DNA from: a virus
Taxonomy: Duplodnaviria; Heunggongvirae; Uroviricota; Caudoviricetes
DNA length: 8,594 bases
IMG/VR virus record: IMGVR_UViG_2740892431_000003
Strand: one strand, 5' to 3'
The notes under the pieces are model-generated. The model was not told where the DNA came from, made no database searches, and saw nothing but the letters and a program-made list of their open reading frames with translations. The position numbers and the translations under genes are program-made. Shown here piece by piece: positions 2,292-8,594 of the stretch. The number at the start of each line of letters is the position of its first letter. Positions within the stretch are counted from its first letter, which is position 1.

Positions 2292-3314
2292 TTACTCGAA
2301 TTCTGGACGCATATCGTTAAGCGTCATCATGAATTTTTGGTGATATTCATCACCGAGCTTTTCAGCCATGGTGTTAATTTCATTTTCAGCGCGCTTGAAC
2401 ATCGTTTTTGCATCTTCAGCAGATGGATCCAGGCTATTAAGTATCGCGATGATATATTCTCGAGCTTCTTCTCGTTCTGAATCTGAAATTGGCGACAGGT
2501 GTTGACGCTCATCGTCAACTACGGAATATTCACCAGTGATAACAGCTGCGTTATCTTGGCTAAGTCCAGCTTCAGCGCGCTCATCCATAACAACAGCCTT
2601 CTGCATTTCAATAGAAACAGGAAGATATTTGAACAGTCGGCGAATTACTGTTTTTTTAGCCATCTCATCGAAGTGATCAACCCATGGGCCACTGCTACCG
2701 GCTTTGCTCAGTGCACGAACTTTCTCAACGTCTGCCCGGCTCATAACTTCAAATTGGACTCCGCCATCTTTCAGTCGTGCAACGGCGTAAACGTGCGTTA
2801 ATTCTCCGCGGTCACCTGTTTCGCAAGGTAAATGCTCGAGCGTTTCTTCCAGGCCGTATGAGTAGCTGAATTTGTCGTTTGTATGTACGGTACGAGCCGA
2901 GATACTCAGGATCTGCCCAGAGCGGCGGGCAAGGTCAATCATTCCGCGATAGCCGATAATCAGCTGTGCTTCTGTAGATACGGTTTCCCATCTTCCATTT
3001 ACTTTCTGGCGTTTGTCGAACGGTATCAGGTAAGCGTGTCCAAGAGCTCCGCCTGGTTCAAGACCCAATTGGGCACATTGCATAATTGCCCCCAGGAAGC
3101 TGGCTTGGTCGCATGATGCAAGTTTTGGAACCTTTCTGATCTCTGTGGTTGCTATGCGCGCCAGACGGTCTGCTGTCATGTGCTTTGGAAGTGCCAAAGC
3201 CATCTGAGCTTTAATTTTTGGGTCTGCCAGAAGTCCGGCCAGAGTTGTTGGTTTCTCATTATGATGTGCAACTTGGTTACCGGTAGCCGCTGCCTTAAGT
3301 GCATTGATAGACAT
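2292..3314 (-). CDS. recT: RecT-family single-strand annealing protein
   Basis: Strong resemblance to Rac RecT: ...MTADRLARIATTEIRKVPKLASCD...AQLGLEPGGALGHAYLIPF...LIIGYRGMIDLARRSGQI...THVYAVARLKDGGVQFEVMSR...GPWVDHFDEMAKKTVIRRLFKYLPVSIEMQKAV. RBS AGGAGA precedes the ATG. Confidence 0.9.
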   Translation of the reverse strand: MSINALKAAATGNQVAHHNEKPTTLAGLLADPKIKAQMALALPKHMTADRLARIATTEIRKVPKLASCDQASFLGAIMQCAQLGLEPGGALGHAYLIPFDKRQKVNGRWETVSTEAQLIIGYRGMIDLARRSGQILSISARTVHTNDKFSYSYGLEETLEHLPCETGDRGELTHVYAVARLKDGGVQFEVMSRADVEKVRALSKAGSSGPWVDHFDEMAKKTVIRRLFKYLPVSIEMQKAVVMDERAEAGLSQDNAAVITGEYSVVDDERQHLSPISDSEREEAREYIIAILNSLDPSAEDAKTMFKRAENEINTMAEKLGDEYHQKFMMTLNDMRPEFE

Positions 3315-4692: not shown

Positions 4693-4771
4693 GTTACCGT
4701 TGAGGTAATAATTATGCGTATTTGGTTTGATGTCAATAGATATGAGTTAAAAAAATTACCCATTAGGTAAT
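4693..4771 (-). promoter_or_regulatory. Leftward early promoter (pL-like) with two flanking 17-bp palindromic operators (OL)
   Basis: Operators GTTACCgttgaGGTAAT (4693-4709) and ATTACCcattaGGTAAT (4755-4771). On the minus strand a -35 TTGACA (complement of 4731-4736) is followed ~17 bp later by an AT-rich -10 (AATTAT) that overlaps the 4693-4709 operator. Confidence 0.5.
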
Positions 4772-4827: not shown

Positions 4828-5412
4828 TTATTGTTTGTTTTTTTCGTTCTGGTTGATGACAAATTCAATGTAACTTTCGATCTTTGCTTTCTCGGTTTCG
4901 GGTAACAATGCGTAGCGCGAGCGGTCATAGTTGATGGTCGCAGGGTCGTGCGGGTGAATCAGTAATTCATAGCCGTGACGCCCGAATGCGGATGCAACAT
5001 TCTCCAGGGTGGAAATGGAAACGCTGACCTCATTGTTTAACAGGCGACTGATTGTCACCTGGGCGACGCCGGATGCGCGGTGAAGTTTTCCCTGCGTTGA
5101 AAGGTCGCGGCTTTCGCTCATCCAGCGTTCCAGGTTGTGAGCCGCCAGCTGACCAATGTCGCTTGGGCCGACAGGCTGAAAACCTTCCTGAGAAAGCGAG
5201 CGATCGATATCAAGCCAGTTACGGGGTTTATTGGCGGCAGCTTCAATTTTTCGTGCAACCTGGTCGCCGATAACCTTCTTGCCAAGAGCCCAGCGGTTTA
5301 CCAGATTTGCCTGAGTTCCAAGTTTTTCTGCCATCCGCGTCTGAACACCATTGAATTCACGGTCGATCAAGTCGTTGAGATTTTGCCTGCGGACGTCCTG
5401 GATACTTTTCAT
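4828..5412 (-). CDS. Prophage repressor (CI-like role) with two tandem XRE-type HTH domains and no S24 peptidase domain
   Basis: First HTH roughly …VQTRMAEKLGTQANLVNRWALGKKVIGDQVARKIEAAANKPRNWLD; second roughly …LHRASGVAQVTISRLLNNEVSVSISTLENVASAFG. Placed between the divergent operator-bearing promoters, followed by its own terminator. The C-terminus has no Ser/Lys peptidase motifs. Confidence 0.7.
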   Translation of the reverse strand: MKSIQDVRRQNLNDLIDREFNGVQTRMAEKLGTQANLVNRWALGKKVIGDQVARKIEAAANKPRNWLDIDRSLSQEGFQPVGPSDIGQLAAHNLERWMSESRDLSTQGKLHRASGVAQVTISRLLNNEVSVSISTLENVASAFGRHGYELLIHPHDPATINYDRSRYALLPETEKAKIESYIEFVINQNEKNKQ

Positions 5413-5466: not shown

Positions 5467-5531
5467 ATTACCCAACAGGTAAATGCACCTCATAGGTAAC
5501 TATCCTTGATTTTTGTTACCTTATGGGTGAA
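5467..5531. promoter_or_regulatory. Immunity-region operators (OR) in the divergent promoter region between the repressor and the Cro-like gene
   Basis: ATTACCcaacaGGTAAA (5467-5483), abutting weaker site TGCACCtcataGGTAAC (5484-5500), and GTTACCttatgGGTGAA (5515-5531). A candidate -35 TTGATT (5505-5510) for the rightward promoter sits just upstream of the third site. Confidence 0.55.
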
Positions 5532-5566: not shown

Positions 5567-5797
5567 ATGAGCGATAACGGACATTTCGATTTCAAAAAGC
5601 ACTGGCTTGCACTTACTCCGGATGAGCGTGAAGCCTTCGCACAGGAAGCCGGAACGACGAGTCACTATATCCAGACTCACTTAACAGGTAAGCGCAAAAT
5701 GCCAGGTAAGGTATTGATGAATGGGCTTTTTAAAGCCTGTAAAACAAGACAATGGCTGCGCTCAAAAGCAGAACTGGCATACTTCTTCTACTCATGA
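5567..5797 (+). CDS. Cro-like small DNA-binding regulator (putative), first rightward gene
   Basis: 76 aa, divergent from the repressor, immediately downstream of the operator cluster and followed by a terminator. The call is positional plus a weak HTH-like segment (LTPDEREAFAQEAGTTSHYIQTHLTGKR); the family assignment is tentative. Confidence 0.5.
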   Translation: MSDNGHFDFKKHWLALTPDEREAFAQEAGTTSHYIQTHLTGKRKMPGKVLMNGLFKACKTRQWLRSKAELAYFFYS

Positions 5798-5819
5798 TAT
5801 CCAGCTACAACCCTCTGTA

Positions 5820-5844
5820 GACCGCCACCCGGCGGTCTTTTCAT
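5820..5844 (+). terminator. Rho-independent terminator after the Cro-like gene (tR1-like position)
   Basis: GACCGCC-accc-GGCGGTC stem-loop (5820-5837) followed by TTTTCAT. Confidence 0.55.
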
Positions 5845-5947
5845 ATCTATTCGTACCTCAAAGGTAATAAAAAACCAAATCTGGTTGATCTTTTTTTTGT
5901 GTCAGCACAAAATGACCGTAACCCCAATACTAATAGCAGGGCTTACC

Positions 5948-6148
5948 ATGGAAATCATTACACGTATTGATGCCGCAAAGCGCGGACTTAAACGCTACTA
6001 CACCGGAAAACCATGTAAGCATGGACATGACAGTGAACGCTGGGTTTACAACGGACACTGTGTTGAGTGCACCATGGAATCAAACCGTCGCATCAGGGCA
6101 GAGATTAAGCAGATCATGATTAATTCCTCCCCACAACACTCAAGCTGA
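5948..6148 (+). CDS. small putative zinc-binding protein (67 aa) at the cII-equivalent position
   Basis: MEIITRIDAAKRGLKRYYTGKPCKHGHDSERWVYNGHCVECTMESNRRIRAEIKQIMINSSPQHSS carries a C-x-H-x-H … H-C-x2-C cluster. I chose the ATG at 5948 over the upstream ATG at 5912; neither has a strong RBS. Confidence 0.45.
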   Translation: MEIITRIDAAKRGLKRYYTGKPCKHGHDSERWVYNGHCVECTMESNRRIRAEIKQIMINSSPQHSS

Positions 6149-6163
6149 TAGCGGAGATTAATC

Positions 6164-6997
6164 ATGAGCAGACATGCAACAGATTGGGCCTGGGAGACAG
6201 ATCCAGGTAGCTCATCATTAAAGCTCATACTGCTCTCGATGGCTGACAGAGCCGATGAATATAACCTCTGCTACCCCAGCATAGAACGCCTCGTTAAAGA
6301 CACTTGCCTGAATAAAAAAACCGTGCAGGCCGGGCTTATATCGCTCATGAAAATGGGGCTTATTTCAGATACCGGAGAGAGAAAGGGAGCGACAAAAAGA
6401 GTGCGGGTTTTCTCTCTTAATATAACCAAAAACGGGAACATTAAAGGCAACCGGGAGGGGGGCAATGAACCCGAAAACGGTAATGTTACCGAAAACGGGA
6501 ATATACCCAAAAACGGGATGTTGAATGATCCCAAAAACGGGATGTTGAATGATCCCAAAAACGGGATCCAGAACCAGTCATATAACCAGTCATTTAACCA
6601 AGAGAGGGAGAGCAGGACAAAAACCGGGGATTCTGTTCCTCATGACCCCGGCGCAAACAACGCCGTGATGAATAACTTTGTTCCTCCTGGTGGGCCAGGG
6701 CAATTAGGTAAATTTGTCATGCATGAACAATGGCAGCCATCAGATGACTTTCTTCGGAAAAGCTCATTGCAGGGAATCTACCTGGACAGTCTGCCAACGG
6801 CACAGGAACTTGCAGAGTTCAGAATTTACTGGATGGCTGAGGGTAAGGCATACCATCAGGCACAGTGGGAGCAGAAGCTGGCAAGGCGCATCCAGTTCTG
6901 TAGACAGAAATCAGGTGAAGTCAGAAAGAGCCTTGACTGGCATAACACTGACTGGATAGATGAGGTGTGGGATGAAATCAACTCCAGAACTTCTTAA
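6164..6997 (+). CDS. Replication initiation protein (lambda O-like; N-terminal winged-helix DNA-binding domain, low-complexity iteron-encoded linker)
   Basis: N-terminus MSRHATDWAWETDPGSSSLKLILLSMADRADEYNLCYPSIERLVKDTCLNKKTVQAGLISLMKMGLISD is typical of phage replication-initiator HTH domains. It sits directly upstream of, and overlaps, the P-like gene and contains the iteron array. RBS GGAG precedes the ATG. Confidence 0.7.
   Translation: MSRHATDWAWETDPGSSSLKLILLSMADRADEYNLCYPSIERLVKDTCLNKKTVQAGLISLMKMGLISDTGERKGATKRVRVFSLNITKNGNIKGNREGGNEPENGNVTENGNIPKNGMLNDPKNGMLNDPKNGIQNQSYNQSFNQERESRTKTGDSVPHDPGANNAVMNNFVPPGGPGQLGKFVMHEQWQPSDDFLRKSSLQGIYLDSLPTAQELAEFRIYWMAEGKAYHQAQWEQKLARRIQFCRQKSGEVRKSLDWHNTDWIDEVWDEINSRTS
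6425..6571. repeat. Iteron array (putative phage origin of replication) embedded in the O-like gene
   Basis: At least six direct repeats with core (A)CC(C)(A/G)AAAACGG(G/T)A starting near 6426, 6470, 6488, 6506, 6530 and 6554, at 18-24 bp spacing. This includes a perfect 24-bp tandem duplication (6506-6529 and 6530-6553). A second short direct repeat AACCAGTCAT(A/T)T follows at 6572-6600. Confidence 0.6.
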
Positions 6998-7754
6998 TGA
7001 GTACGATCGCTTTCGTGGTGGGCATGACCACTCGACGGCGGTTGCTTCTGCTGACGATGAAAGGGCAAAGAAGGAGCAGGTTGCAAGAATTTTCAACGAA
7101 ATGTTTGTCCAGTTACAGGCTGCATTTCCAGGCAGCATCGCTGCTATCAGCGAGCAAGGAAAGCTAAACGAATTTCGAAAACAATGGATGCTTGCGTTTC
7201 TGGAGAATGGGATCACAACAATGGAACAGGTTAACGCTGGTATGCGCCACGCCCGCGCCAGTGAATCTCCGTTCTGGCCGTCGCCTGGGCAATTCATCAA
7301 GTGGTGCAAAGACAGCAAGATGGTTCTTGGCGTCACCATTGACGATGTGATGGCGGAGTTTCACCGGTACAGCAAGGAAAAAAGTTTATATCCTGGTGGT
7401 CCCGAAAGATTCCCGTGGCGACATCCGGTTATGTACTGGGTCGTATGTGATACCCGCCGTGCAATGTATCAGCGCCAGCTTAGCGAGATTGAGGTTGAGA
7501 AACACGCGCGCAGGCTGCTCGATGATTGGGCGAAAAAGGTGGCTTCCGGACAGCAGATACCCGATCCGGTGATCAGCATACAGGCAAAGCCAGAACCCAT
7601 GAGTACACCTCCGGACACAGGGAGAGACGTTTACCATCCACCAGGGCGAAGTTTCGGGTGCATGCCTAACGCCGCCACCCTTGGGGGAATAACACCGGCG
7701 CAGTGGCTGATGGAGGAATACAGGCGGGGAAAGGCGGCAGGATTTATCAAGTAA
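6972..7754 (+). CDS. Replication protein P-like (DnaB helicase loader, lambda P family)
   Basis: …IFNEMFVQLQAAFPGSIAAI…FRKQWMLAFLENGITTMEQVNAGMRHARASESPFWPSPGQFIKWCKD… closely parallels lambda P as I recall it (ITTMEQVNAGMR, PSPGQF). I chose the ATG at 6972 with RBS GAGGTG upstream; it overlaps the O-like 3' end as in lambda. Confidence 0.85.
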   Translation: MKSTPELLNEYDRFRGGHDHSTAVASADDERAKKEQVARIFNEMFVQLQAAFPGSIAAISEQGKLNEFRKQWMLAFLENGITTMEQVNAGMRHARASESPFWPSPGQFIKWCKDSKMVLGVTIDDVMAEFHRYSKEKSLYPGGPERFPWRHPVMYWVVCDTRRAMYQRQLSEIEVEKHARRLLDDWAKKVASGQQIPDPVISIQAKPEPMSTPPDTGRDVYHPPGRSFGCMPNAATLGGITPAQWLMEEYRRGKAAGFIK

Positions 7755-7759
7755 TACCA

Positions 7760-7779
7760 GCGCGATAGCGCATTTTTTT
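7760..7779 (+). terminator. Possible weak intrinsic terminator after the P-like gene
   Basis: Short GCGC-gata-GCGC hairpin followed by aTTTTTTT. The stem is only 4 bp, so confidence is low. Confidence 0.35.
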
Positions 7780-7790
7780 ACGTCTCGATG

Positions 7791-7869
7791 ATTACCTACT
7801 GGGTAATAAAATATTCTAAAATCTATTGATTTAGTGTCTTATGTGGTTTTTAATTACCTCAGGGGTAAA
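7791..7869 (+). promoter_or_regulatory. Third operator-flanked sigma70-like promoter upstream of the DUF1064-like gene
   Basis: Operators ATTACCtactgGGTAAT (7791-7807) and ATTACCtcaggGGTAAA (7853-7869) bracket -35 TTGATT (7826-7831), a 17-bp spacer and -10 TTTAAT (7849-7854). The downstream operator overlaps the -10 and start region; RBS AGGGG precedes ATG 7872. Confidence 0.5.
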
Positions 7870-7871
7870 TC

Positions 7872-8216
7872 ATGAGAAAACAGATACAGGCTCTTGGTCG
7901 ACTCAAAACAGGCCAGATGAACAAAACAGAATCTGCGTATTGCCAGCACCTTGAGCAGCGTAAACGTGCAGGGGAAATCGCCTGGTATCGGTTCGAGGGT
8001 ATCAAGCTGCGGTTAGCTGATAACACGTTTTATACGCCAGATTTCGCTGTGATGCTCGCCACCGGCGAGATGGAACTGCACGAAGTGAAAGGTTTCTGGA
8101 CCGACGACGCCAGGGTGAAAACCAAAGTCGCCGCAGATCAGTATCCGTTCCGAATCATCGGGGTAACGGTTAAACCAAAGAAAGCAGGTGGCGGCTGGAA
8201 CATCGAAGAGTTCTGA
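7872..8216 (+). CDS. DUF1064-like phage protein with a PD-(D/E)xK nuclease-type motif (putative endonuclease/resolvase-like)
   Basis: …ESAYCQHLEQRKRAGEIAWYRFEGIKLRLADNTFYTPDFAVMLATGEMELHEVKGFW…QYPF resembles the conserved core of small phage DUF1064 proteins (D…E.K signature) as I recall them; not verified by search. Confidence 0.5.
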   Translation: MRKQIQALGRLKTGQMNKTESAYCQHLEQRKRAGEIAWYRFEGIKLRLADNTFYTPDFAVMLATGEMELHEVKGFWTDDARVKTKVAADQYPFRIIGVTVKPKKAGGGWNIEEF

Positions 8217-8277
8217 ATCGACGATCTTTTTAGTTATCAATGTAATCAATAAGTTATGTGGATAAGCGAGGGTAAAG

Positions 8278-8594
8278 ATGGAAAGTAATATCAAAGGGTT
8301 AGTTGCCGCCGGGCATGAGATGGCTTCGGAACTGAAAGCAGAATGTGGTGCCGTTGATATGCGCAGTGTGGCAAAGCTGATCAGCGATTTGGCAACGCAA
8401 CTGGAAGTGCAATTGGTGCGTGCTAATGCGCTGGCATCACTGGAGGCAGAGCCAGTGGCAAAAATTATAGCTCACTACCCATTAGGAATTGACGTAGGCA
8501 AACAAAAGTTCGTACAGGCCATTGGAGAGCTTCCTGACTTTGGAGGACATCTATTCGCCGCTCCACCCGTTCCAGTAGTACCGGAAGAAAAACC
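8278..8594 (+). CDS. hypothetical phage protein, 5' part (ORF runs off the window end)
   Basis: RBS GAGGGT is 5 nt upstream of ATG 8278. The frame stays open to the window end: MESNIKGLVAAGHEMASELKAECGAVDMRSVAKLISDLATQLEVQLVRANALASLEAEPVAKIIAHYPLGIDVGKQKFVQAIGELPDFGGHLFAAPPVPVVPEEKP… No family recognised. Confidence 0.5.
   Translation, partial: MESNIKGLVAAGHEMASELKAECGAVDMRSVAKLISDLATQLEVQLVRANALASLEAEPVAKIIAHYPLGIDVGKQKFVQAIGELPDFGGHLFAAPPVPVVPEEK

Follow-up and report, generated by a model that had tools for sequence, protein, structure and literature searches.

Judged from sequence, the DNA between positions 7780 and 7871, which follows the replication gene P, is a real and strongly conserved regulatory region. 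We consider it likely that the slightly longer interval 7760-7871 constitutes a Uetakevirus cassette in which a weak terminator is followed by a sigma-70-type promoter lying between two operators for the prophage repressor Rep, and that this promoter would be repressed by Rep in the lysogen and induced by the antirepressor Ant. The region is ordinary for the phiV10/epsilon15 group, since it is one of about eight such regions and since the corresponding site of epsilon15 has already been annotated. An operator-flanked promoter after P is already known in outline and is no new class of system.

All coordinates refer to the window, that is, the whole stretch of 8,594 nt that was analyzed. It corresponds to the early region of an Escherichia coli prophage of the phiV10/epsilon15 type (Uetakevirus) and shares 97-98% identity with phiV10 and its relatives. 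DNA resembling the junction (window 7700-8594) is present in 688 of 5,426 complete genomes.

Two predicted operators and their conservation

The candidate promoter is framed by two palindromes. The predicted distal operator (ATTACCTACTGGGTAAT, 7791-7807) reads ATTACC-TACTG-GGTAAT and is a perfect palindrome, with its center some 62 nt ahead of the predicted transcription start. The predicted proximal operator (ATTACCTCAGGGGTAAA, 7853-7869) reads ATTACC-TCAGG-GGTAAA and has one mismatch, at its last base. The initial annotation had described two perfect palindromes, which is correct for the first site but not for the second; both sites have a perfect 15-bp core, TTACC-N5-GGTAA, and the two centers are 62 bp apart. 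The proximal operator overlaps the end of the -10 element, the predicted start site (approximately 7861) and a Shine-Dalgarno-like GGGGT (7862-7866); the start codon of the DUF1064 gene follows 3 nt after the operator ends.

Six sites with at most two mismatches to the palindrome are found in the window against an expectation of 0.23, a number reached in none of 200 shuffles, and the phiV10 genome contains nine sites with at most one mismatch where 0.04 would be expected. Nor is the palindrome scattered widely through the host, as 150 kb of the E. coli K-12 chromosome contain no perfect site and three sites with at most one mismatch, compared with five in the 8.6-kb window. Its enrichment over host DNA is approximately 30-fold. 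Chance occurrence is ruled out by this enrichment in the window and in phiV10 relative to shuffled and host DNA.

Across phiV10, epsilon15 and SPC32H the palindrome marks approximately eight intergenic regions, and the region after P is thus not the third operator region, as had been proposed, but one of about eight. Because all of these regions carry an operator, direct silencing by the repressor appears to extend to most transcription units. Within the window, the OR region between the repressor and cro-like genes (5467-5531) has operators at 5467-5483, 5484-5500 (with a weaker left half) and 5515-5531. A weaker single operator-like site, CGTACC-TCAAA-GGTAAT (5852-5868), lies just downstream of the terminator of the cro-like gene (terminator at 5819-5838; fold -15 kcal/mol, z = -5.4). 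The earlier proposal that the palindromes at 7791 and 7853 are of the same kind as those of the immunity region, and that they frame a conserved promoter-like element, was borne out.

Fine-scale footprinting was based on 80 loci obtained from a scan of IMG/VR, in all of which the repressor is 100% identical, so that these loci are uninformative on co-variation. The operator pair is present in 76 of these 80 contigs, and in every one of the 76 that keep the junction between P and the DUF1064 gene. The four contigs that lack the pair have lost the entire junction and are therefore not counter-examples. Variation is close to zero (approximately 0-0.07 bits) in the half-sites, the -35 and the -10, and reaches 1.15 bits among 62 distinct variants in the 5-nt spacer of the distal operator, which is the most variable stretch of the 291 bp compared. 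The loci behind the conservation statistics for this promoter were chosen for having the pair; the resulting bias is small because every locus that keeps the junction has the pair. Furthermore, OL and OR, which were extracted without any motif requirement, show the same pattern of conservation, and at PL the half-sites are likewise invariant and the spacers variable (74 variants).

Beyond this closely related set, the 62-bp operator pair follows the replication genes in phiV10, epsilon15, a Klebsiella phage, Tyrion, BUCT554 and SPC32H, as well as in prophages of Superficieibacter, Erwinia, Klebsiella and Citrobacter, giving ten diverged genomes or prophages in total. The pair is kept despite exchange of its neighbors, which are P or a DnaT-like gene only on the upstream side and a DUF1064 or RuvC gene on the downstream side.

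The promoter-like element and its counterpart at PL

Between the operators, on the plus strand, there is a -35-like hexamer TTGATT (7826-7831; mean entropy 0.02 bits) within a conserved CTATTGA and, 17 bp after it, a -10-like hexamer TTTAAT (7849-7854) that matches the consensus at five of six positions and has T rather than A at position 2. The hexamers and the 17-bp spacing are where the initial annotation placed them, but the description "near-consensus" was too generous, as the element as a whole matches at 9 of 12 positions, with T6 of the -10 present and A2 absent. It is the absence of this A that kept the promoter out of the output of the consensus scan. An extended -10 (TGn) that might compensate for the weak -10 was considered and rejected, as the TG is at the wrong distance. 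The predicted leader of the DUF1064 transcript would be only about 11 nt long.

This candidate promoter is strongly conserved and collinear with PL. The PL module (4693-4771, minus strand) consists of a proximal operator (4693-4709), a -10 AATTAT (4713-4708), a -35 TTGACA (4736-4731) and a distal operator (4755-4771), and its 62-bp operator geometry is identical to that of the 7780-7880 module. When PL is reverse-complemented, the two modules align without gaps in four genomes, the distances from operator to -35 and from -10 to operator are identical, and TTTAAT falls column for column on the -10 of PL. TTGA is invariant in six genomes and in PL.

The imperfect -10 and the failure of the scan to report a promoter are compatible with a different reading, in which there is no promoter and the repressor-bound palindromes form a roadblock, or anchor long-range loops to OR and OL, and so back up a leaky terminator against transcription from pR in the lysogen. 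Operator-like sites do directly follow terminators at both 5852 and 7791, and mycobacteriophage L5 has repressor-bound stoperators within its operons. We nonetheless regard this reading as unlikely: the DNA between the operators, including CTATTGA and the -10 block, is conserved as much as the operators themselves, and PL, with which the module aligns without gaps, has TTGACA, the consensus, as its -35, and the leftward operon has no other candidate promoter. A pure roadblock would require neither helically phased sites nor a conserved -35.

The spacer of the candidate promoter contains a second conserved element, TTATGTGGTT (7839-7848, plus strand), which is common to promoters of the late region. 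phiV10 contains five copies of TATRTGGTT where 0.46 would be expected, and every copy follows a repressor-type palindrome at a distance of 29-41 nt. (C)CATATGTGGTT, which here lies in the spacer, precedes the -10 by 7 nt at the portal, tail-fiber and lysis promoters. That TTATGTGGTT is shared with late promoters suggests a further regulator, beyond a model in which Rep alone clamps the promoter.

The putative terminator and the genes of the unit

Six nucleotides after the stop codon of P there is a putative weak intrinsic terminator (7760-7779, plus strand), composed of the hairpin GCGC-GATA-GCGC (7760-7771), an A and a run of seven T (7773-7779). The T-tract hairpin on which a separate transcription unit had been predicated is therefore present, and it is conserved, but its stem is weak, with four G-C base pairs (fold -8.4 kcal/mol, z = -2.0). 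It thus falls short of the 5 bp or more that the G+C-rich stem of an intrinsic terminator should have ahead of its U-run, and the terminator scan, whose minimum is five pairs, did not report it. A strong terminator after P was rejected on account of the 4-bp stem. Six genomes share an identical stem and T-run but differ in the loop, variation across 7760-7779 is near zero in the 62 variants, and the phiV10 record annotates the hairpin as a putative terminator. A conserved stem and U-run around a variable loop suggests a weak but real terminator. Because the hairpin is weak, read-through from pR may also feed the DUF1064 operon. An Rfam search of the entire window returned no match to a structured RNA.

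The first gene of the unit (7872-8216, plus strand) encodes a 114-amino-acid DUF1064 protein. It matches Pfam PF06356 at 31.1 bits (gathering cut-off 24.7, E = 3.4e-7), which bears out the initial assignment of a DUF1064-like product, and it carries the PHROG 190 label. The protein combines the catalytic motif and the restriction-endonuclease-like fold of PD-(D/E)XK nucleases, of which it is a minimal example, and its position is taken by a RuvC-type resolvase in epsilon15 and Tyrion. It is probably a Holliday junction resolvase, as indicated indirectly by the PHROG 190 label, by its replacement with RuvC in epsilon15 and Tyrion and by a RusA-like gene, recognized by eye, that lies nearby in a Providencia prophage; its annotation as a resolvase-type nuclease is supported. 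Among the functions first suggested for this module, recombination fits both the nuclease assignment and the RuvC-type resolvases at the same position in epsilon15 and Tyrion. An antirepressor does not, as ant of SPC32H and its annotated equivalents in epsilon15 and phiV10 lie in the late region; an antirepressor, anti-defense or toxin role for the 114-amino-acid protein is ruled out by its identity as a PD-(D/E)XK nuclease and by the location of ant elsewhere. The next gene begins at 8278 on the plus strand and runs past the end of the window at 8594. Its phiV10 orthologue is annotated as eae-like; the open reading frame itself has no Pfam match, and the PHROGs it matched are of unknown function.

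The repressor and its presumed operator

The presumed ligand of the palindromes is the 194-amino-acid prophage repressor encoded at 4828-5412 on the minus strand. It has an HTH_3 domain, and phmmer aligns it over its full length with SPC32H Rep (PDB 5D50; E = 1.9e-41, approximately 41% identity). Its NLVNRW segment is invariant in six relatives. Because all full-length homologs in the phage collection belong to Uetakeviruses and share both the half-site and NLVNRW, co-variation could not be addressed among cultured phages. A scan of representative genomes yielded only six loci, one of them informative. In that locus, a Providencia prophage, the repressor is 34-36% identical and has VPNVISRY in place of QANLVNRW in the putative recognition helix, and the palindrome is changed to TTAACC-N5-GGTTAA in three places, namely PL, OR and a position 14 nt upstream of the gene that comes first behind the replication genes. 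The conservation of the post-P region, a geometry identical to that of PL and this parallel change of repressor and palindrome all favor the view that the prophage repressor controls the region directly.

In lambdoid phages CI and Cro share operators. The palindromes could likewise serve chiefly another regulator, for example the 76-amino-acid cro-like protein, with the operon being turned down later in lytic growth. The cro-like open reading frame (5567-5797) matches PHROG 35, "transcriptional repressor", and the palindrome is present at OR, where the repressor and the cro-like protein would both be expected to act. Such a role would be compatible with Rep binding rather than exclude it. As the chief explanation we find it improbable, given that the Providencia co-variation involves the putative recognition helix of the repressor and that the annotators of epsilon15 assigned the sites to the repressor.

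It is also conceivable, but very unlikely, that the cassette is merely a copy of PL that has no function, or a set of chance matches carried along by recombination. The PL and 7780-7880 modules are clearly related in sequence, and the 7780-7880 region is a mosaic junction. However, the cassette has been retained across genera in which its flanks have diverged by approximately 20-25%, its half-sites are invariant while the spacers vary freely, and both the enrichment over host DNA and the Providencia co-variation speak against it.

Proposed mechanism

We propose that in the lysogen Rep would occupy both operators. Bound at the proximal operator, it would keep RNA polymerase out by masking the start site, the ribosome-binding site and the last part of the -10. 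The distal operator would lie on the same face of the DNA, since 62 bp corresponds to about six helical turns, and it would add cooperativity, most likely through one Rep tetramer or two interacting tetramers that bridge the sites and bend the A/T-rich DNA between them. Upon induction the LexA-controlled antirepressor Ant, which is encoded elsewhere, would strip Rep from the DNA and the promoter would fire. The resulting operon would start with the PD-(D/E)XK nuclease and, in phiV10, would extend through accessory genes to a putative regulator beside the packaging genes. The anatomy of the sequence, its conservation, the co-variation and the homology of repressor and nuclease are observations; the binding of Rep at 7791 and 7853, the position of the start site, DNA looping and activity as a resolvase are what we infer.

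Rep is a DNA-binding tetramer in which two pairs of dimerization (MDD) domains lie approximately 100 Å apart and face away from the tetramerization domain (PMC9986798; PMC9638917). The latter has a "TetDloop" fold, as does that of the DNA-looping protein Rco (PMC9986798). The contour of a 62-bp loop is approximately 210 Å, compared with the approximately 100 Å between the Rep domain pairs, and strong bending of the DNA would be needed. The engagement of two sites by an SPC32H-type Rep tetramer has been described as not extensively characterized (PMC9986798), and the paired operators offer a defined natural substrate on which it could be examined.

A more elaborate reading, which we hold to be possible but doubtful, is that operator-promoter-operator forms a portable clamp used twice per genome, at PL and at 7780-7880, with a single Rep tetramer wrapping approximately 62 bp of promoter DNA, and that the promoter is in addition co-regulated with the late promoters through (C)CATATGTGGTT. 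If so, a second phage factor would act both here and at the late promoters, and Rep would police every transcription unit directly and not by way of a cascade.

Comparison with known systems

The closest precedent is epsilon15, in the record of which (GenBank AY150271 / NC_004775) the orthologous distal site, 35906-35922, is annotated as "protein_bind: repressor". This phage belongs to the same genus and has the same 17-bp palindrome at the same position, between a replication gene and a gene for a Holliday junction resolvase. The predicted repressor-binding sites reportedly go back to Kropinski et al. in 2007, to whom the GenBank record refers. Further repressor sites are annotated before terS, the portal operon and the tail fiber gene and at OL. 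At the post-replication promoter the record annotates the distal site only; 62 bp further downstream there is a second site that carries no annotation. Unlike the present prophage, epsilon15 has a RuvC-type resolvase instead of DUF1064 downstream and no P gene upstream. The phiV10 record annotates no operators. Pairs of TTACC-N5-GGTAA 62 bp apart can serve as an annotation rule that marks the boundaries of transcription units in epsilon15/phiV10-type prophages.

In SPC32H, the same operator pair is found at 35971 and 36033, before the DUF1064 gene of that phage, and ant is in the late region and not downstream of the post-replication promoter. The Rep-Ant switch of SPC32H, said to have been described by Kim and Ryu in 2013 and by Kim et al. 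in 2016 (PDB 5D50 and 5D4Z), reportedly consists of a tetrameric Rep on DNA that is removed by a LexA-controlled antirepressor.

The arrangement also resembles short-loop repression in the lac and gal systems, by lambda CI bound five to six turns apart, and by Rco of pLS20 at sites 75 bp apart, in that a promoter lies between two operators separated by whole helical turns (62 bp here) and the repressor here is tetrameric. It differs from these in that looping is predicted for Rep and that the loop would be unusually tight. As with gp71 of mycobacteriophage L5, one repressor appears to have many sites over the whole genome, including the late regions. The stoperators of L5 are asymmetric 13-mers that lie inside operons and block elongation in an orientation-dependent manner, whereas the sites described here are palindromic, intergenic and located beside promoter-like sequences.

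Lambda, which the initial annotation took as its reference, is the wrong model for this prophage, a Uetakevirus with an SPC32H-Rep-type repressor and a conserved operator-flanked promoter after P. The two do share a divergent immunity region in which PL and PR carry operators, as well as the gene order repressor, cro, O-like and P, and the genes after P resemble the nin region. No N-like antiterminator was detected among the small early open reading frames in searches of Pfam and PHROGs, where the lack of a match is weak evidence. Unlike in lambda, however, the genes after P here have an operator-flanked promoter to themselves, operators are found at approximately eight regions, including before late genes, and the repressor is of an unrelated architecture, a tetramer inactivated by an antirepressor in place of a protein inactivated through RecA cleavage. 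Prophages of the epsilon15/phiV10 type, which are common in E. coli, thus depart from the lambda scheme, with a tetrameric, antirepressor-controlled Rep that seems to occupy nearly every transcription unit, including a dedicated post-replication promoter.

Identity and Gene Order of the Window

The 8,594-base window matches Escherichia phages phiV10, phiv142-3, and ZX5 and their Uetakevirus relatives in mosaic pieces of 97-98% identity, and parts of Salmonella phage epsilon15 align to it at ~80% identity. Its gene order begins with the 3' end of an integrase gene and continues with a leftward operon (methyltransferase, PerC-like, AlpA-like, RecT, exonuclease, and two small ORFs), the repressor gene (4828-5412, minus strand), a cro-like gene (5567-5797), a small zinc-finger-like ORF (5948-6148), a DnaT/O-like gene (6164-6997), the P gene (6960-7754), a DUF1064 gene (7872-8216), and an eae-like ORF from 8278. 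Over its full length, the repressor is homologous to Rep from Salmonella phage SPC32H (PDB 5D50, E = 1.9e-41). The 66-aa product of the ORF between the cro-like and DnaT/O-like genes has a conserved C-x-H-G-H ... C-x-x-C pattern, falls in PHROG 1081 (function unknown), and is weakly similar to endonuclease VII zinc-binding proteins; the ORF keeps its position in a Providencia prophage and could encode a small zinc-finger regulator. Within the DnaT/O-like gene, an array of 18-24-bp direct repeats of the CCCAAAAACGGGA type (6418-6570), encoding a repetitive, NG-rich peptide, looks like an iteron-containing replication origin, much as lambda carries such an origin within its O gene.

Operators and Promoter Upstream of the DUF1064 Gene

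The initial annotation placed two perfect operator palindromes around a promoter in the segment between the P and DUF1064 genes (7760-7871). The distal site, at 7791-7807, is indeed a perfect ATTACC-N5-GGTAAT palindrome, whereas the proximal site, at 7853-7869, ends in GGTAAA and thus carries one mismatch; neither site has a mismatch in the 15-bp core. At ≤2 mismatches the window holds six such sites against 0.23 expected, a count that no shuffle reached. The palindrome is not scattered through the host genome, a point that had been singled out for checking: 150 kb of the E. coli K-12 chromosome contains no perfect site and three at ≤1 mismatch, compared with five at ≤1 mismatch in the window.

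Every element of the proposed promoter was found, that is, TTGATT at 7826-7831, a 17-bp spacer, and TTTAAT at 7849-7854, but the match to consensus is 9/12, the -10 hexamer is without the conserved A at its second position, and a consensus promoter scan of the window did not report it. Similarly, the T-tract hairpin described after P exists (GCGC-GATA-GCGC, then A and seven T) but is weak, with four pairs, -8.4 kcal/mol, and z = -2.0; the terminators after the cro-like and repressor genes are much stronger (z = -5.4 and -6.7). The public phiV10 record already marks the post-P hairpin as a putative terminator. The same order of terminator and then operator is seen downstream of the cro-like gene, where a strong terminator (5819-5838) is directly followed by a weaker operator-like CGTACC-N5-GGTAAT (5852-5868) and a possible promoter (TTGATC at 5886-5891, 17 bp, CAAAAT) from which the zinc-finger-like ORF and replication genes would be read.

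Conservation and Collinearity with the Leftward Early Promoter

A pair of operators spaced 62 bp center to center follows the replication genes in phiV10, epsilon15, SPC32H, Klebsiella phage ST512-KPC3phi13.3, and Enterobacter phages Tyrion and BUCT554, as well as in prophages of Superficieibacter, Erwinia dacicola, Klebsiella pneumoniae, Citrobacter werkmanii, and Citrobacter braakii. When six genomes are aligned, no variation is seen in the hairpin stem, the T-run, the half-sites of both operators, CTATTGA, a T-TGG-T block, the -10 region, or the ATG, but the loop of the hairpin and the operator spacers do vary. The cassette is kept despite neighbor swaps: epsilon15 has no P gene upstream of it, and in epsilon15 and Tyrion a RuvC-type resolvase takes the place of DUF1064 downstream. 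In four genomes the module aligns without gaps to the reverse-complemented module of PL, the leftward early promoter of the same genome. Both have a distal operator whose center lies 27 bp from the start of TTGA(C/T), a 17-bp spacer, a -10, and a proximal operator centered 7 bp beyond the end of the -10. In PL the -35 is the consensus TTGACA, and the overall match is 10/12. Palindromes acting as roadblocks or loop anchors with no promoter are unlikely given this collinearity with PL and the conserved -35 and -10 block.

The operator pair is present in 76 of the 80 IMG/VR contigs whose repressor is identical, and the remaining four have lost the entire P-DUF1064 junction. Across the 62 distinct variants the half-sites, -35, and -10 vary by 0-0.07 bits and the coding flanks by ~0.05 bits, compared with 1.15 bits, the highest value in 291 bp, in the 5-nt spacer of the distal operator (7797-7801). 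The same half-site versus spacer contrast is seen at OL and OR (the operators of PL and those between the repressor and cro-like genes), whose sequences were extracted without any motif condition. The spacer of the distal PL operator (4761-4765) reaches 0.69 bits in relatives that are otherwise 98-99% identical, with flanking genes at ~0.05. No other positions come close to these two distal spacers in variability, and the proximal and OR1 spacers change much less; relaxed constraint, affinity tuning, or a mutational hotspot in a potential cruciform loop could be responsible.

Co-variation of Operator and Repressor in Providencia

The repressor of a Providencia alcalifaciens prophage (L093) is 34-36% identical, and QANLVNRW, invariant elsewhere, is replaced by VPNVISRY. 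No ATTACC-type operators were found in this prophage; TTAACC-N5-GGTTAA stands instead at PL, at OR (with one mismatch), and, in perfect form, 14 nt upstream of the first post-replication gene (9850, 10675, and 12905, reverse-complement orientation). The operator sequence at the post-replication position thus follows the repressor. Of the computational evidence, this co-variation argues most strongly for binding of the promoter under study by the immunity repressor or another immunity-region regulator. The cro-like protein may share the palindromes, which is compatible with Rep binding. That the cassette is an inert duplicate strikes us as extremely improbable in view of its conservation, the enrichment of its operators, and the co-variation. 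A second palindrome, ATAAAC-N5-GTTTAT, lies beside the TTAACC operators at PL and the post-replication promoter of L093 (9679, 9923, and 12887, reverse complement), and GTTTAT repeats occur in its OR region too, which suggests that this prophage has two DNA-binding regulators with separate sites.

Operators Genome-Wide and a Second Conserved Element

In whole-genome scans of phiV10, epsilon15, and SPC32H the palindrome recurs at conserved intergenic positions. Two sites lie at the promoter under study, three at OR, and two or three at OL; others stand immediately upstream of terS, ahead of the portal operon and the lysis cassette, in the gap between ant and the tail-fiber or tailspike gene, and, in weak form, ahead of int. 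The phiV10 genome contains nine sites at ≤1 mismatch against 0.04 expected. With about eight operator regions genome-wide, the promoter is not the third operator region on a lambda-like scheme that had been envisaged, and the distribution suggests direct silencing of most transcription units by Rep. The public epsilon15 record already labels many of the sites "protein_bind: repressor", including 35906-35922, the ortholog of the distal site, upstream of the resolvase gene; the proximal site, the 62-bp pairing, and the geometry shared with PL were not found among the record annotations, from which the primary papers may differ. In phiV10, terS is annotated from 41, and operators at 86-102 and 104-120 and a strong hairpin fall inside the annotated gene start; the equivalent epsilon15 operators precede terS, and an ATG near 121 is the more probable start in phiV10.

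The promoter spacer contains a second conserved element, TTATGTGGTT (7839-7848), that recurs at three late-region promoters. The motif has the form (C)CATAT(G/A)TGGTT and becomes a perfect palindrome, AACCATATATGGTT, at the lysis promoter. Copies lie at 3310, 20923, 24736/24741, and 35118 in phiV10 (five against 0.46 expected), at 2990 and 24753 in epsilon15, and at 3233 and 24831 in SPC32H, every one 29-41 nt downstream of a repressor palindrome. At the portal, tail-fiber, and lysis promoters it stands 7 nt upstream of -10-like hexamers without a recognizable -35. A second regulator, perhaps a late one, may act there.

A Model for Repression and Induction

Direct repressor control of the promoter is a proposal well supported by sequence comparison. 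Kim & Ryu 2013 reportedly found that Rep is uncleaved in the SOS response and is displaced by Ant, a small LexA-controlled antirepressor. The proximal operator would span -8 to +9 around a start inferred at ~7861, together with a Shine-Dalgarno-like GGGGT, so that Rep bound there would keep RNA polymerase out. Cooperativity would come from the distal operator, which lies six turns upstream on the same side of the helix: either a single tetramer would bridge the two sites or two tetramers would interact, bending the A/T-rich DNA in between. SPC32H Rep binds DNA as a tetramer, the proposal being that different dimers contribute the DNA-binding pairs, and a single tetramer is described as sufficient for repression (PMC9638917). 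Its two pairs of MDD (dimerization) domains lie ~100 Å apart and point away from a tetramerization domain whose fold is common to Rco, the DNA-looping regulator of pLS20, and the repression mechanism is described as not extensively characterized (PMC9986798). The loop would be tight, with ~210 Å of DNA between sites against the ~100 Å quoted for the Rep domains, and this is the least secure step. On induction the promoter would drive an operon beginning with DUF1064. In phiV10 this operon reaches, after ~4 kb, the gene for a putative transcriptional regulator (PHROG 536), beyond which come a strong hairpin, two further operators, and terS. Because the post-P hairpin is weak, some read-through from pR, the rightward early promoter, probably also enters this operon.

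The 114-aa product of the first gene belongs to Pfam DUF1064, a family assigned by a 2005 prediction to the PD-(D/E)XK nucleases (PMC1189080). It matches PHROG 190, labeled Holliday junction resolvase (E = 6e-43), its YTPDF...EVKG segment aligns weakly to the active-site region of T7 endonuclease I, and P56-D57, E71, and K73 are invariant among 22 homologs. Given these features and the replacement by RuvC, a junction-resolving or branch-cleaving role is our best guess. A RusA-like gene was recognized by eye near the equivalent position in the Providencia prophage. The antirepressor-like function floated earlier for this gene is ruled out, as ant of SPC32H and its annotated equivalents in epsilon15 and phiV10 lie in the late region.

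Relation to Lambda and Epsilon15

The initial observation is real and well above chance, its errors being minor ones of detail. The claim of novelty against lambda fails, since the feature belongs to the standard regulatory scheme of epsilon15 and SPC32H and is annotated already.
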